Below are positions 12,950-58,390 of a stretch of 64,000 nt of DNA, in pieces. The notes below the pieces were generated by a model. The model made no database searches. It was not told where the DNA came from and saw only the letters and a program-made list of their open reading frames with translations. The first letter of the stretch is position 1; each line of letters opens with the position of its first letter. The translations under genes and the position numbers were made by a program. The stretch lies in NCBI GenBank assembly GCA_963658085.1, contig CAVKOU010000008.1, forward strand, positions 8 through 64,007, read 5' to 3'. Source of the DNA: a bacterium (lineage in GTDB: Bacteria; Bacillota; Clostridia; Lachnospirales; Lachnospiraceae).

Positions 12950-13103
12950 TCAGATAGTTGATACACAATCAATCAACTATCCCCCCTCATAAAGTTGTAC
13001 TCCTAATAAGGAGTACACTTTACTCTCATTCCTTTAGATAACTATAACAACAACAAGAAACCGTCAGCTTCGGCTGACGGTTTCTTGTTGTCTTTCTTTT
13101 TTT
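12950..13103 (+). ncRNA. Candidate small RNA with three hairpins and a C-rich single-stranded tract
   Basis: Possible promoter TTGGAC (12921-12926), N18, AATACT. Hairpin 1 spans 12953-12981 (10 bp), followed by CCCCCCTC at 12981-12988. Hairpin 2 spans 12997-13016. A 19-bp terminator hairpin spans 13050-13091 and is followed by a T-run on the plus strand. Confidence 0.3.
13050..13103. terminator. Strong bidirectional terminator (also serves the aminopeptidase gene)
   Basis: Perfect 19-bp stem acaacaagaaaccgtcagc-ttcg-gctgacggtttcttgttgt. Confidence 0.85.
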
Positions 13104-15673: not shown

Positions 15674-18457
15674 TTATCGTTCGGGAGCCTCCTGGTCGTA
15701 TTGTTGAAATCTTCGATTTCCAAGGCGTACTTCCTTCAAGTGTTCTTGCAGCTTCGGATCCATATGATCCATCAGATAATTTCTAGCGGTCTCCCGCCTT
15801 TTTTCGCTCTCTTCCTTGATCTGACGGTTCACAAATTCTACCTCATCAAAAAATTCTCTTGATGAGATCAAAGAGGCACCACGGCCTCTTGTCACCACCT
15901 GCTCCACTCCATCGGAGGTTACCACGGTCACGTGGTATTTTTTCCCGATATGATGCGTCACTTTTTCGATATATTGATCTGCCGTCTCTGCTTCTTTGGT
16001 AAATACAACATGAATGTTGTGATACTTATACACTTCCAAAGCATCTCCCTCTACTTTGTAAGCATCAAACACAAGGATGACGGCGCATTTTTTAAAGCCC
16101 TGATAGTTGCACAAAATATCCATCAGCTTATTTCTGGCACTCTGGATATTCTCCTTTGCCAGTTCCTTTAACTCTTCCCAGGCGAAGATTACATTATAGC
16201 CATCCACCAGCAGGTATTCTTCTATAGGTTCCGTACTTTTAGGAGTCTCCTTCTGAGCTCCCACAGTTACGGTAGAAGCCTTAGGAGTTTTATGCTCTAC
16301 TTTTCCATAGGTTCGTATAAAGATTTCTTCTAATTCTTTATCTTCCTCATAACTGGTAGAGATAAAATTTTCCCCTCTAGACTTTGGCGCCTGCACATCT
16401 TTTGCATCCTTGGTTTTTACAGACTTCTTTTTGCCTAATTGTTTTTCAATATGCATTTTACCAAAGACTTGATCCCACGGCACTGCATAGCCTGCACCAT
16501 GGGCACAAAAAACGGATCCTGTAGGATTTTCCAGATCTCTTTCCGGATCATAACCTATGGCTTCTATAACTTCCTCCGAATTATGGCAAGGGTAATATCC
16601 CTTATAAGCACAGGTTAAATGTCCCATTCCTCTGGTATATTCCGTAACCTCCATGGCGTATTCACCCATACAAGCCACCGGGGCCTGGCCTGTGATTACG
16701 GTGTGATCTTTCTCTGTCTGAGGCGTATCAAACTCCCCATGCATTCTCTGAATATCCGTCATAGCTCTGCCTACATATTCGGAAGGAATCTCTAACCGGA
16801 AGCTAAAATATGGCTCTAACAAAATATTTTCAGCCTGCATAAGCCCCTGGCGAACTGCCCGGTAGGTAGACTGTCTGAAATCACCACCCTCCGTATGTTT
16901 TAGGTGCGCTTTTCCTGCCACCAGGGTGATCTTCACATCCGTCAAAGCCGAACCTGTAAGAACCCCTTTATGTTCCTTCTCCTCCAAATGAGTTAGGATC
17001 AGCCGCTGCCAGTTCTTATCTAACATATCCTCGCTGCAGGCAGTTTCCAGTACTAATCCCTCGCCAGCCTGAGCCGGTTCCATTTTCAGATGCACTTCTG
17101 CATAATGTCTTAAAGGTTCAAAATGTCCAACACCCTCCACAACATTTCCAATGGTTTCTTTATAGACAATGCTTCCGGGGCCAAATGAAGGTTCCACAGA
17201 AAATCGCTCCATCATCAGGCTTTTTAGCACTTCTTTTTGGACTTCTCCCATAAGCTGTACATGAATTTCAGACAGAGTCTCATTCCATACCACCTTAAGC
17301 ATTGGATCCTCTTCCTCTAACTCTCTGAGATACCCTAGCATCTTATGAGCATCTACATTCTCAGGAAGTTCCACCTGATAATTAATCACCGGCTCAAGCA
17401 CCGGAAGATTAGATTCTTCTTCCATTCCAAGGCCTTGCCCGGGGTAGGTAGCGGTAAGTCCTGTAACAGCACAGATTCTTCCATCAGAAATCTCCTGCAC
17501 CATTTCATATTTTTCACCGGAGTAAATGCGAATCTGATTCACCTTTTCTTCCCAGATATTTCCATCTCTTCCTCGTCCTTGCAACAGATCCTTTACACGC
17601 AAAGTCCCGGAGGTAACCTTTAAGTGAGTCAGGCGCTCGCCCTTTAAATCTCTGGAGATTTTATAAATCTTTCCTCCAAAGCCTTCTTCCTCCAGAGCTT
17701 GTTCCCTTAAGGTTTGATTCCCTAAGTCTTGCTCTCCCAAAGTTTCTTTCTGAAATCTAGGATTTTGGCAAAAAAGTTCAATTCCATCCAACAGTTCCCG
17801 GACGCCCATAAGTTTCAAAGCTGATCCAAAATAGCAGGGAAATACCTGCCGGTTTCTAATAAGTGCGGCTATGGTATCCTGACTGATCTTTCCCTGATCT
17901 AAATATTCCTCCAGGGCATCCTCATGGCAGGTGGCAAGATTTTCATAAAAGTCTCCCTGTTCTTGCCCTTCCATTTCTTCGTGAGAAAATACCGGAAACG
18001 CAAGACAGGATTCCTCCAAATTCTTTTGCAAATCCAGGAGAAGCTCTTCGGGAGCTCTTCCCTCCTGATCCATTTTGTTGATAAACAGAAAAGTAGGAAC
18101 TTTGTAATGTTTTAAGAGTCTCCAAAGCGTCCTGGTATGGCCCTGAACTCCGTCCGCTCCGTTGATTACCAGAATCGCTGCATCTAAAACCTGTAGGGTT
18201 CGCTCCATCTCCGCCGCAAAATCCACATGTCCCGGAGTATCAAGAAGTGTCACGGACAGATCATGTAGCTTAACCTCCGCCTGCTTGGAAAAAATCGTAA
18301 TCCCCCGCTCACGCTCTAAAGCATAGGTATCCAGATAGGCATCCTTATGATCTACTCTTCCAGGTTTGCGAATTTTACCTGTAAGATATAAAATGCTCTC
18401 TGATAAAGTTGTCTTTCCGGCATCTACATGAGCCACCAATCCTACTGTAATGTGCAT
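15674..18457 (-). CDS. TetM/EF-G-like translational GTPase fused to a C-terminal Rae1/YacP-type NYN ribonuclease domain
   Basis: G1 AHVDAGKTT, G3 DTPGH and G4 NKMD, followed by EF-G-like domains II-V. A Lys-rich linker comes next. Nt 15827-16216 then encode YLLVDGYNVIF...VFDAYKV...VVFTKEAETADQYIE...VVTSDGVEQ, the YacP/Rae1 signature. ATG at 18457 follows AAGAGGTG. Confidence 0.85.
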   Translation of the reverse strand: MHITVGLVAHVDAGKTTLSESILYLTGKIRKPGRVDHKDAYLDTYALERERGITIFSKQAEVKLHDLSVTLLDTPGHVDFAAEMERTLQVLDAAILVINGADGVQGHTRTLWRLLKHYKVPTFLFINKMDQEGRAPEELLLDLQKNLEESCLAFPVFSHEEMEGQEQGDFYENLATCHEDALEEYLDQGKISQDTIAALIRNRQVFPCYFGSALKLMGVRELLDGIELFCQNPRFQKETLGEQDLGNQTLREQALEEEGFGGKIYKISRDLKGERLTHLKVTSGTLRVKDLLQGRGRDGNIWEEKVNQIRIYSGEKYEMVQEISDGRICAVTGLTATYPGQGLGMEEESNLPVLEPVINYQVELPENVDAHKMLGYLRELEEEDPMLKVVWNETLSEIHVQLMGEVQKEVLKSLMMERFSVEPSFGPGSIVYKETIGNVVEGVGHFEPLRHYAEVHLKMEPAQAGEGLVLETACSEDMLDKNWQRLILTHLEEKEHKGVLTGSALTDVKITLVAGKAHLKHTEGGDFRQSTYRAVRQGLMQAENILLEPYFSFRLEIPSEYVGRAMTDIQRMHGEFDTPQTEKDHTVITGQAPVACMGEYAMEVTEYTRGMGHLTCAYKGYYPCHNSEEVIEAIGYDPERDLENPTGSVFCAHGAGYAVPWDQVFGKMHIEKQLGKKKSVKTKDAKDVQAPKSRGENFISTSYEEDKELEEIFIRTYGKVEHKTPKASTVTVGAQKETPKSTEPIEEYLLVDGYNVIFAWEELKELAKENIQSARNKLMDILCNYQGFKKCAVILVFDAYKVEGDALEVYKYHNIHVVFTKEAETADQYIEKVTHHIGKKYHVTVVTSDGVEQVVTRGRGASLISSREFFDEVEFVNRQIKEESEKRRETARNYLMDHMDPKLQEHLKEVRLGNRRFQQYDQEAPER

Positions 18458-18466
18458 CCACAACAC

Positions 18467-18501
18467 CTCTTATCTTTTATCTTTTATCTCTTATCTCTTA
18501 T
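18467..18501. repeat. Five tandem heptamers, CTYTTAT (ATAARAG on the coding strand)
   Basis: ctcttat cttttat cttttat ctcttat ctcttat, immediately upstream of the GTPase-NYN SD and start, inside the 58-nt spacer after the PPIase gene. Confidence 0.9.
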
Positions 18502-21142: not shown

Positions 21143-21171
21143 AGTATACTACTTACCCATATTTGTGTCAA
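21143..21171 (-). promoter_or_regulatory. Sigma-A-type promoter for mgtE
   Basis: TTGACA (21166-21171), N17, TATACT (21143-21148) on the minus strand. Confidence 0.6.
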
Positions 21172-21230
21172 AAATAATCCCTGTTTTTATGAAGATTTAA
21201 CCCATCCATTACATCATTATAAAGAGCATT

Positions 21231-21275
21231 ATAAAAGAAAAATAGCGTTGCAAAAATTAAATATCTTTGCAACGC
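21231..21275 (-). terminator. Terminator after the DUF4340 gene
   Basis: Stem gcgttgcaaa/tttgcaacgc with a U-run on the minus strand. Confidence 0.7.
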
Positions 21276-21326
21276 CATGTCCCTTTGAAAATCATTCTGA
21301 AACAGATTCTTCAGTTACTACAAATT

Positions 21327-57091: not shown

Positions 57092-58390
57092 ATGGTGAAC
57101 AGTATCAAATATTATTTAGTTGATAGCGAAAATGTAAACGACAATTGGTTGATGCTACTGGATCTGGCAAACGAAGAGGATGAGATTGTTATCTTCTACA
57201 CCAAGAATTCCCCTCACATGTCCTACATGTCAGTGGTGAAGCTTCTTGGCAATACTACCCGAAAGATTACTTTCGAGGAATGCTACGAAGGCAACAATGC
57301 CTTGGATTTCCAATTGATTTCCTATATGGGATATCTTATGAACGAGGATTCCAGGGAAAATGGCACTGAATTTGTAGTCATGAGCAATGACACCGGTTTT
57401 GATGCCGCCGTGAAATTTTGGAAAAAGAAAGGCTTTGCGGTTCGGAGAGTGAATGTAAATTTCTGTAAGATTGCATTGCACAAGCACAAAACTACGGAGT
57501 CGGAAACACCTGTCGTCCCAGAACATGAAGCTGCGAAAGAGACAGCTCCTGTTGTCCCAGAATACGAAGCTGCGAAAGAGACAGCTCCTGTTATCGCAGA
57601 ACACGAAACAGCGAAAGAGCAAGCTCTTGTTGCAGAAGTTTCCGCAGATTCTACCGCAGTAAGTTGCCTTCCTGAGTTTGCTGAGACAGAAGGAACTCCT
57701 TCTGAGGATTCCAAGGAAATCTCTTATCTTCCTGAGTTTATAGAATCAAAGGAACAACCTTCGGAGGAACCAACGCGCTCGGAAGAACCAGAGGTTCCTG
57801 TAACTTCTGTAGCTCCTGTAGCTCTCGAAACTCCTGTAGCTCCTGCAGTTACGGAAAGCAAAACAACCACAGAAGCCTCTGAAGAATTTAAACAAATTAC
57901 ATTTCTTCCTGAATTTGTGGAAACCGAAGAAGATTCTTTAGAAGACTTCAAAGAAAGCACCCACCTTCCTGAATTTTCCGAGACCAAGGAGGAATCTTCC
58001 CCCTACGCTTTTGACAAACAGGAAGTGGATGAAATCATCAATTGTATTACAAAGGACTCTTTAGAGTCCCTCCACGAAACCTTGGTTCACATTTATGGTC
58101 GGGACCAGGGTCAGAAGATTTATAAGACCATTAAATCCAACGCTTATCCTTATAAGCAGACAATTTACTCCCGCAAGGAAAAAGTAACTCATATCACTGA
58201 TATAATCTTTTTACACAGTGACCTTGAAAATCCTGGGGATTTTGTTGATTTCCTGGAGAAAAACAAAAATAAGACCAAGAATTTAAATGGGATTCGATCT
58301 GCCATTAACAAGACTTATGGTTCCGCTAATGGCATCAAGTACTATAGTTTATTCAAACCGTATTTCAAGATTATATCAGCTATGAAATAA
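57092..58390 (+). CDS. LabA/NYN-like (PIN-fold) domain protein with central acidic tandem repeats and an uncharacterised C-terminal domain
   Basis: The N-terminal 125 aa carry VDSENV, NNALDFQL and VMSNDTGFD, the LabA-type NYN acidic motifs. There are three copies of PV(V/I)PE(H/Y)EAAKETA (nt 57509-57625) and four copies of the LPEFxE(T/S) motif (nt 57665-57991). Confidence 0.6.
   Translation: MVNSIKYYLVDSENVNDNWLMLLDLANEEDEIVIFYTKNSPHMSYMSVVKLLGNTTRKITFEECYEGNNALDFQLISYMGYLMNEDSRENGTEFVVMSNDTGFDAAVKFWKKKGFAVRRVNVNFCKIALHKHKTTESETPVVPEHEAAKETAPVVPEYEAAKETAPVIAEHETAKEQALVAEVSADSTAVSCLPEFAETEGTPSEDSKEISYLPEFIESKEQPSEEPTRSEEPEVPVTSVAPVALETPVAPAVTESKTTTEASEEFKQITFLPEFVETEEDSLEDFKESTHLPEFSETKEESSPYAFDKQEVDEIINCITKDSLESLHETLVHIYGRDQGQKIYKTIKSNAYPYKQTIYSRKEKVTHITDIIFLHSDLENPGDFVDFLEKNKNKTKNLNGIRSAINKTYGSANGIKYYSLFKPYFKIISAMK

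Follow-up and report, generated by a model that had tools for sequence, protein, structure and literature searches.

Anatomy, distribution, and a possible ribosome-rescue role of a clostridial GTPase fused to a Rae1/YacP-type NYN domain

Here, we analyzed a gene located on the minus strand of a 64,000-nucleotide stretch of Lachnospiraceae DNA (contig CAVKOU010000008.1, assembly GCA_963658085.1), the whole of which is referred to as the window. In a single open reading frame (ORF), it encodes a translational GTPase related to EF-G and TetM/TetO followed by an NYN domain of the type found in Rae1 (YacP) of Bacillus subtilis. Both catalytic centers are conserved, domain IV of the GTPase and an extension at its C terminus are specific to the family, a disordered tether joins the two halves, and the gene is spread over chromosomes free of any fixed context. 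Given the way in which Rae1 acts in B. subtilis, the best-supported function of the fusion would be the cleavage of mRNA on ribosomes unable to proceed. We think there is about an even chance that it is a ribosome-rescue or mRNA surveillance nuclease, in which a Rae1-type NYN domain is tethered to its own sensor of the ribosome state.

An intact member of a catalogued family

The gene consists of 927 uninterrupted codons, in which six Pfam domains follow one another in the order GTP_EFTU (residues 2 to 228; E value of 3.6e-51), EF-G_D2 (262 to 335), EFG_III (355 to 425; 1.3e-8), EFG_IV (429 to 542; 5e-17), EFG_C (546 to 627; 5e-19), and NYN_YacP (PF05991; 749 to 911; 4.4e-54). The last match scored 183.4 bits against a gathering cutoff of 24.6, and the C terminus of the fusion covered positions 1 to 165 of the 166 in the model. 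An earlier note on this DNA, made from the sequence alone, had proposed just such a single ORF joining a TetM/EF-G-like GTPase to a Rae1/YacP NYN domain, and the Pfam matches, among them all four families that it had named (GTP_EFTU, EFG_IV, EFG_C, and NYN_YacP), confirm it, as do the motifs that it quoted, every one of which is present (AHVDAGKTT, DTPGH, NKMD, LLVDGYN, VFDA, ETADQYIE, and TSDGVEQ). Its two-domain layout also stands, but the GTPase body, which it had extended to about residue 690, ends at ca. 624 and is followed by an extension (625 to 670), a tether (671 to 745), and the NYN domain (746 to 890).

A frameshift or an assembly artifact was rejected as the origin of the fusion. 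The window protein belongs to a 90%-identity cluster of 13 members (all from NCBI), 12 of which were 927 aa long, and both sets of domains were found in each of the 120 homologs listed (63 to 100% identity), which were named as Dorea, Faecalicatena, Bariatricus, or Lachnospiraceae. We also scanned one genome per species with two peptide patterns specific to the family, which gave at least 600 matching stretches, and took as a sample of loci the best 80 of them, each from the genome of a different species. The G domain, domains IV and V, the extension, and the NYN domain lay in one uninterrupted ORF in 80 of 80 loci, which spanned Lachnospiraceae, Oscillospiraceae, Anaerovorax, Desulfitobacterium, and Desulfosporosinus, and the stop or frameshift between the halves that the earlier note had envisaged as a refutation was found in none.

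The architecture itself has already been published. Atkinson 2015 (PMC4342817) gave ten such sequences in Additional file 8, put them in the Tet subfamily, and suggested that they serve in antibiotic resistance or cut rRNA, and the fusion was described again by Matelska et al. 2017 (PMC5499597); the novelty implied by the earlier note was thus overstated. We read the ten published sequences, and the fusions of R. albus, E. rectale, C. thermocellum, D. hafniense, and others share GVGHFEPLRHYAEVH, KHTEGGDFR, SVFCxHGAG, and EEYLLVDGYN with no architectural difference from the window protein, which is a further member of this catalogued family. Those papers covered some ten species and were concerned with tetracycline resistance or the cleavage of rRNA; what is added here is the breadth of at least 600 species, a domain IV that is not Tet-like, the anatomy of the extension and the tether, and the link to the revised picture of Rae1. 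The value of the fusion lies in its function and not in the discovery of its architecture.

GTPase body and domain IV

In order to examine conservation along the protein, we used an alignment of 66 full-length members (42 to 86% identity), from which the structure was also predicted (AlphaFold; mean predicted local distance difference test [pLDDT] of 86, predicted template modeling score of 0.71). The model matched five-domain EF-G structures, ribosome-bound EF-G included, with a Foldseek E value of ca. 1e-52. Motifs G1 (AHVDAGKTT), G2 (T54), G3 (DTPGH, with its His), and G4 (NKMD) of the G domain were invariant or at least 90% conserved among the 66 homologs and were found in 73 to 75 of 75 further species; counting the catalytic motifs of the NYN domain as well, the range was 68 to 75 of 75.

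Residues 1 to 624 scored 264 bits against TetO, 244 against TetM, and ca. 250 (251) against EF-G in the PDB, and the fusion reached 320 bits with the EF-G equivalog model TIGR00484, below its cutoff of 659.4. Judged from these sequence comparisons, it belongs to the EF-G/EF2 superfamily but is not EF-G itself, and it forms a separate subfamily near the split between Tet proteins and EF-G. With EF-G (2XEX and 4V5F), it shares the fold, the order of domains, the GTPase motifs, and, in the alignment, a His in loop III of domain IV; however, the identity is only 24 to 27%, the EF-G sequence of loop I is missing, and EF-G has no nuclease appendage.

The mean pairwise identity was 59% in domain IV versus 49% in the G domain and 49% in the NYN domain, and this preference for domain IV points to a specific contact with the decoding center. 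Loop III, near-invariant across the 66-member alignment, reads AHxKHTEGGDFRQ at the site of the YSPVS loop of TetM/TetO and the SYHDVDSSEMAF loop of EF-G; in the alignments, its counterparts are YSPVSTPADFR in TetM/TetO and SYHDVDSSEMAFK in EF-G. The loops at the tip of domain IV also contain many invariant His, Lys, and Arg residues (GH..RH and AH.KH). Conservation that peaks in domain IV and not in the G domain, with tip loops of this kind, is unusual for paralogs of the EF-G family.

Relation to tetracycline resistance

With tet_protect and TetO as the best NCBIfam and PDB matches of its GTPase half, the fusion might be a genuine ribosomal protection protein for tetracycline or another A-site drug that had acquired an accessory nuclease, a reading along the lines of the Tet-subfamily placement by Atkinson 2015 and of the TetM/TetW/TetO/TetS names of some RefSeq records. 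We consider it very unlikely. The scores were far below the cutoffs of all Tet models, namely, 430 bits versus 775 for tet_protect (NF012153), 295 versus 1100 for the M/W/O/S model, 279 versus 1425 for Tet(Q), and 308 versus 900 for Otr(A), and EF-G scored nearly as high as TetO in the PDB (251 versus 264 bits).

In TetM/TetO, the YSPVS loop III of domain IV contacts the tetracycline site and dislodges the drug, a role reportedly treated in Li 2013 and Donhofer 2012 (both cited in PMC4342817). YSPVS (residues 507 to 511 of Tet(O)) was present in 0 of 75 family members, all of which have an invariant different loop instead, AHLKHTE in the window protein. The short terminal helix of TetM is not found either: the alignments to TetM/TetO end at ca. 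residue 624, and a different conserved extension of 46 residues, plus 250 more residues, follows in its place. In addition, the mobile tet genes contrast with the fusion gene, which lies on chromosomes in no fixed context and is found in at least 600 species. By sequence criteria, then, the fusion does not count among the canonical tetracycline protection proteins, and the advice of the earlier note not to annotate it as a resistance gene is borne out by the sub-cutoff scores, the missing YSPVS, and the different C terminus.

What the fusion has in common with Tet(M)/Tet(O) (4V6V, 3J25, and 3J9Y) is the five-domain EF-G-like plan with a G' insert and a loop I of Tet-like length, and these proteins are the top PDB and NCBIfam relatives of residues 1 to 624. 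They differ in having YSPVS and a C-terminal element of their own, whereas the fusion has AHxKHTEGGDF and ca. 300 residues of extension, tether, and nuclease, and in the mobility of their genes, as the fusion gene is not on mobile elements.

Some RefSeq and metagenome-assembled genome (MAG) records name homologs of the fusion as "TetM/TetW/TetO/TetS family" resistance proteins, examples being WP_306784676.1 of Agathobacter rectalis (NZ_CP143948.1; locus L085, 4105-6906) and a protein of a Dorea MAG (P0019). Since homologs so named fail the Tet cutoffs and lack YSPVS, these are likely false calls of resistance genes. If the Tet naming is wrong, as the sequence criteria indicate, surveys of the resistome in gut metagenomes could over-count tetracycline resistance genes where they depend on these names.

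Extension, tether, and nuclease domain

Directly after domain V, the extension was predicted with a pLDDT of ca. 90 or higher (H627-634, E648-652, and E655-659 in the model), and its residues S648, F650, and G654 were invariant in the 66 sequences. It had no sequence match in the PDB, where alignments end at ca. residue 624. In the tether that follows, the pLDDT was <50 at residues 677 to 706, 716 to 719, and 721 to 742. Its length ranged from 61 to 185 residues in 79 species (median of 81) and was never below 61, and the motif ELEEIFxRTYG within it was kept in 56 of the 79.

The NYN half aligned to the crystal sequence of B. subtilis YacP/Rae1 (PDB 5MQ8/5MQ9) with an E value of 9e-25; the NYN fold (PF05991) is homologous, with ca. 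40% identity over ca. 140 residues, and no NCBIfam model matched this half. The four active-site aspartates D7, D53, D81, and D104 of B. subtilis align with D752, D798, D827, and D849 of the fusion, which were invariant in all 66 sequences, so that the catalytic residues whose loss the earlier note had named as a refutation are retained. Rae1 is a free protein of ca. 170 to 180 aa, whereas in the fusion the domain is the C terminus of a 927-aa GTPase and carries an extra tail, and a ribosome-linked action such as that of Rae1 is presumed for it.

The halves might also have been joined for coexpression or colocalization only, with the protein working as an EF-G2-like elongation, recycling, or splitting factor independently of the nuclease and with no GTP-gated cleavage. 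Bacteria have several EF-G paralogs of unclear role (PMC4342817), and domain IV, the part responsible for translocation, is the most conserved region. However, the halves were fused in all 80 loci and separate in none, a conserved extension and a semiconserved tether helix lie between them, and the scores are far under the EF-G equivalog cutoffs. Universal fusion and conserved junction elements argue for functional coupling, and we regard such a factor as distinctly improbable.

Possible role on stalled ribosomes

In ribosome-bound translational GTPases of the EF-G/TetM family, domain IV extends to the decoding center while the G domain contacts the sarcin-ricin loop, and the same would be expected of the fusion body. 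The earlier note had relied on the view of Rae1 as an A-site mRNA endonuclease, which its original laboratory has since withdrawn, and therefore "delivery into the A site" no longer follows; of its proposal of a covalent fusion with a ribosome-linked nuclease, the tethered design remains, with both catalytic centers conserved, and the A-site delivery does not. In the revised picture (Deves et al.), Rae1 cleavage depends on translation, and the cuts lie at the tail of stalled ribosomes (PMC12407103). Collision-induced tagging by transfer-messenger RNA (tmRNA) depends on Rae1, as described by Tetreault et al. 2026 (PMC13622287), according to whom there is no structure of ribosome-bound Rae1, because its binding is transient, and it has yet to be explained how Rae1 recognizes a stalled or collided ribosome. 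Their survey used a hidden Markov model search for Rae1 with no length filter, so fusions were probably counted as Rae1.

The conserved tip of domain IV, the conserved extension, and a tether never shorter than ca. 60 residues suggest a body that acts as sensor and anchor and an NYN domain that acts as tethered effector. For this protein, we infer ribosome binding, gating by GTP, an mRNA substrate, a cut site, and coupling to trans-translation, in the following sequence. The five-domain body, in its GTP form, would dock in the translation-factor site of a ribosome unable to proceed, such as one that has stalled with its A site vacant or the trailing one of a collision, locked in the rotated state and unable to translocate. 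The tip of domain IV (GHFEPLRHYAEV and AHxKHTEGGDF) would then probe the decoding center, while the folded extension would anchor the disordered tether of at least 60 residues, allowing the NYN domain to reach and cut the mRNA there or at the disome interface. Hydrolysis of GTP on the sarcin-ricin loop would release the factor and limit cutting to one dwell period, and the truncated mRNA would pass the ribosome or ribosomes to tmRNA/SmpB, a handover shown for the free Rae1 of B. subtilis. The binding of free Rae1 to ribosomes is only transient (PMC13622287), a limit that a covalent anchor in the factor site would remove; the fusion would have such an anchor permanently in its predicted GTPase.

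Two geometries may be distinguished. The anchor may sit on the stalled ribosome itself (vacant A site, Tet-like); the cut would then lie on the side of the entry or the A site, unless a long reach brought the NYN domain to the exit side. Alternatively, it may sit on the trailing collided ribosome (rotated, EF-G-like), with a cut at the disome interface, as for free Rae1 and SmrB. We estimate that a tether of 61 residues spans ca. 200 Å when fully extended (ca. 3.5 Å per residue), and with such a reach tether length alone does not separate the two.

Several points weigh against a role in rescue. The cut made by free Rae1 lies where the mRNA exits the stalled ribosome, a long way from that ribosome's factor site, and the mechanism therefore needs a long reach, another cut position, or an anchor on the trailing ribosome. 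The strong conservation of domain IV could reflect a task in which the nuclease has no part, the fusion may be a replacement of Rae1 or an extra paralog, and a possible cotranscription with mgtE, ppiC, and a peptidase gene (see below) says nothing about rescue. Finally, no experimental work on any family member was found in the full-text literature, in agreement with the earlier note, which knew of none.

The nuclease could instead be directed at rRNA or tRNA, with the GTPase docked on ribosomes or on assembly intermediates, and serve in maturation, in the control of defective subunits, or, under stress, in inactivating ribosomes or putting them into hibernation. Cleavage of rRNA was suggested by Atkinson 2015 (PMC4342817), free yacP lies beside mrnC (mini-RNase III) and rlmB in Bacilli and C. 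difficile, which was the original hint, and an anchor in the factor site puts the NYN domain near rRNA (the sarcin-ricin loop, h44, and H69). On the other hand, every Rae1 substrate defined by experiment is an mRNA that is cut while being translated (PMC12407103, PMC10351889, and PMC13622287), and a tether that is long, flexible, and variable is better suited to a target that is itself distal and variable than to a fixed site in rRNA. We hold an rRNA or tRNA target to be improbable, although far from negligible.

A bolder form of the rescue proposal would be a one-polypeptide bacterial machine for no-go decay, in which a His/Lys-rich domain IV senses a rotated collided ribosome or one with a vacant A site, GTP acts as a timer, the tethered Rae1 domain is swung onto the mRNA between ribosomes, and the role of free Rae1 has been taken over in much of Clostridia; all of this together seems possible but doubtful. 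In the no-go decay of eukaryotes and archaea, Hbs1-Dom34 (Pelota) is a translational GTPase that brings a surveillance module, with GTP hydrolysis timing the event. The likeness to what is proposed for the fusion is one of concept (delivery by a GTPase to a stalled ribosome), as Hbs1-Dom34 consists of two proteins, with a GTPase of the EF-Tu/eEF1A type rather than the EF-G type, and Dom34 is not the nuclease and has no homology to NYN. SmrB of Escherichia coli and Cue2 of yeast have the same proposed job, collision-dependent cutting of mRNA that enables rescue (PMC13622287), but their nuclease fold is SMR, unrelated to NYN, and they are recruited via the disome interface or ubiquitin and not by a translational GTPase.

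In light of the Rae1 work of 2025 and 2026, the fusion is an attractive handle on how Rae1-type nucleases engage stalled ribosomes. As a natural fusion to a factor-site GTPase, it could serve to trap and image such a nuclease on the ribosome, and it makes a testable prediction about which state of the ribosome is sensed. If the proposal is true, a body locked by a nonhydrolyzable GTP analog might give the first structure of a ribosome-engaged Rae1 domain, and the delivery of a nuclease would be a new job for the EF-G/Tet branch of translational GTPases.

Distribution and genomic context

The scan of one genome per species placed the fusion in at least 600 species. Carriers were found in Lachnospiraceae (Dorea, Faecalicatena, Blautia, Mediterraneibacter, Roseburia, Agathobacter, and Butyrivibrio) and in Oscillospiraceae/Ruminococcaceae (Flavonifractor, Dysosmobacter, and R. 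albus), and further ones were C. thermocellum, C. cellulolyticum, Monoglobus, Anaerovorax, Desulfitobacterium, and Desulfosporosinus. Abundant gut Clostridia (Dorea, Blautia, Agathobacter, Roseburia, and Ruminococcus) and the biotechnological C. thermocellum are thus included. When the C-terminal 303 residues were searched against a library clustered at 50% identity, ca. 500 clusters were matched at an E value of ≤1e-30 out of ca. 3,700 at ≤1e-3, and the top matches listed were fusions or fragments of fusions. The family is therefore likely to make up a large share of NYN_YacP diversity.

No gene neighborhood was conserved among the 80 loci. The largest real cluster of neighbors was a multipass membrane protein in 10 of the 80, and the helix-turn-helix neighbor remarked on by Matelska 2017 was not reproduced among them. 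In 2.9 million viral contigs there were 6 matches, mostly at contig edges. The fusion gene looks chromosomal and vertically inherited across several orders, and the lack of a conserved neighborhood, the scarcity in viral contigs, and the lack of a meaningful PADLOC match make up the profile of a housekeeping factor.

The same data bear on the stress or defense response that the earlier note had listed among the possible functions, in its defense part an anti-phage or abortive-infection effector that cuts RNA on ribosomes when triggered. An action of Rae1 on stall-causing phage mRNAs has been speculated on (PMC13622287), and one fusion, of the Lachnospiraceae bacterium 42-17 type (locus L001, 2895-18739; P0037), lies between defense-like blocks. 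Against it stand the missing conserved neighbors, the near absence from viral contigs, and the distribution, which looks vertical, and the only match in PADLOC-DB was ThsB-like (17 bits; E value of 8e-4), with no passing stretch and at chance level. The defense part of that suggestion did not hold up, and we give it almost no credence. The flanks of L001 encode an AAA_15/AAA_21 ATPase, a reverse transcriptase (RVT_1), and DUF6602 on one side and HATPase_c_3, Z1, DUF4420, and AIPR on the other, a setting not seen in the 80 other loci.

Carriage on plasmids was rejected, given that the "plasmid" matches inspected (C. difficile, Monoglobus, and A. rectalis) look like chromosome fragments. The PLSDB record of C. 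difficile (L084; NZ_CP149721.1) holds gltX-cysS-mrnC-thyX-rlmB-NYN-sigH-tuf-rpmG-secE-nusG-rplK, and that of Monoglobus (L086/L087; NZ_OY725736.1) is a 518-kb "plasmid 12" whose sibling records are of 589 to 3773 bp and which is part of the genome. These records appear to be mislabeled pieces of chromosome. Full-length fusion genes were also found on two scaffolds from human feces named "UNVERIFIED: Bacteriophage sp." (MT835563.1 [L091, 5397-8024] and MT835514.1). A gene for NAD(P)H-hydrate dehydratase adjoins the fusion on MT835563.1, no phage-associated Pfam match was obtained among the ORFs sampled around the Bacteriophage sp. fusion, and both scaffolds are probably bacterial DNA that had entered a virome data set.

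Free Rae1 is encoded beside rlmB and sigH, whereas the fusion has no cysS-mrnC-rlmB-yacP-sigH context. No second NYN_YacP was found in the window by tblastn, and there was no separate NYN gene near the fusion in the flanks of the 80 loci. A search from the free Rae1 of C. difficile yielded only Peptostreptococcaceae. In contrast to C. difficile, with its canonical rlmB-NYN-sigH cluster, sigH directly follows pta-ackA, with no rlmB-yacP upstream, in Monoglobus pectinilyticus (L086, 6962-7564) and two relatives (L098 and L100, 6001-6636), where a copy elsewhere is possible. This hints that some fusion-carrying lineages have lost or relocated the canonical locus of free yacP.

In the window, the fusion gene is preceded by mgtE and a gene for a PpiC-type isomerase and followed by a Cys-rich ORF of 380 aa and a gene for an M18 aminopeptidase (Table 1). 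The Cys-rich ORF had no Pfam match at an E value of ≤1e-3 and is not a conserved neighbor of the fusion in other species. A consensus scan, and only this, gave a terminator and a promoter-like site before mgtE (21143-21278, minus strand), and a five-gene unit on the minus strand, mgtE-ppiC-fusion-ORF380-pepM18, is possible.

Table 1. Positions in the window of the fusion gene, its parts, and neighboring features
Feature	Residues	Position	Strand	Basis and remarks
Whole fusion coding sequence	927 aa + stop	15674..18457	-	ATG at 18457; ORF and Pfam
Ribosome-binding site GAGGTG		18464..18469	-	6 nt 5' of ATG; read in the sequence
G domain and G' insert	1-230	17768..18457	-	GTP_EFTU; pLDDT of >90
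Variable insert between G domain and domain II	231-259	17681..17767	-	Mostly gaps, 11% mean identity; low pLDDT
Domain II	260-345	17423..17680	-	EF-G_D2; beta-barrel in the model
Domain III	355-425	17183..17395	-	EFG_III
Domain IV	429-542	16832..17173	-	EFG_IV; best-conserved region
Domain IV loop I, GHFEPLRHYAEV	444-455	17093..17128	-	Near-invariant family signature; unlike TetO and EF-G
Domain IV loop III, AHLKHTEGGDFRQ	517-529	16871..16909	-	Alignments to 4v6v, 3j25, and 2xex
Domain V	546-624	16586..16822	-	EFG_C
Conserved C-terminal extension	625-670	16448..16585	-	Helix and beta-hairpin; motif SVFCxHGAGxxVPW
Disordered Lys/Glu/Ser-rich tether	671-745	16223..16447	-	75 residues here; 16% mean pairwise identity
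Semiconserved tether helix, KELEEIFIRTYG	706-717	within 16223..16447	-	(K)ELEEIFxRTYG; short, amphipathic
NYN_YacP/Rae1-type domain	746-890	15788..16222	-	Pfam; 5MQ8/5MQ9; predicted endoribonuclease
Poorly conserved C-terminal tail	891-927 + stop	15674..15787	-	Alignment identity
Cys-rich ORF	380 aa	14484-15626	-	Directly 3' of the fusion, 47-nt gap; N terminus FQCIAGDCEDTCCAGW
Terminator-like hairpin after the M18 aminopeptidase gene		13049..13092	-	Strong, 20-bp stem; consensus scan only, weak
Promoter-like site upstream of mgtE		21143..21171	-	11/12 matches; consensus scan only, weak

Elsewhere in the window (57092-58390, plus strand), an ORF of 432 aa, which has no sequence kinship to the NYN_YacP domain and no Pfam match beyond PIN7, carries at its N terminus a PIN7 domain (PF18475; E value of 1e-30) of the PIN superfamily.

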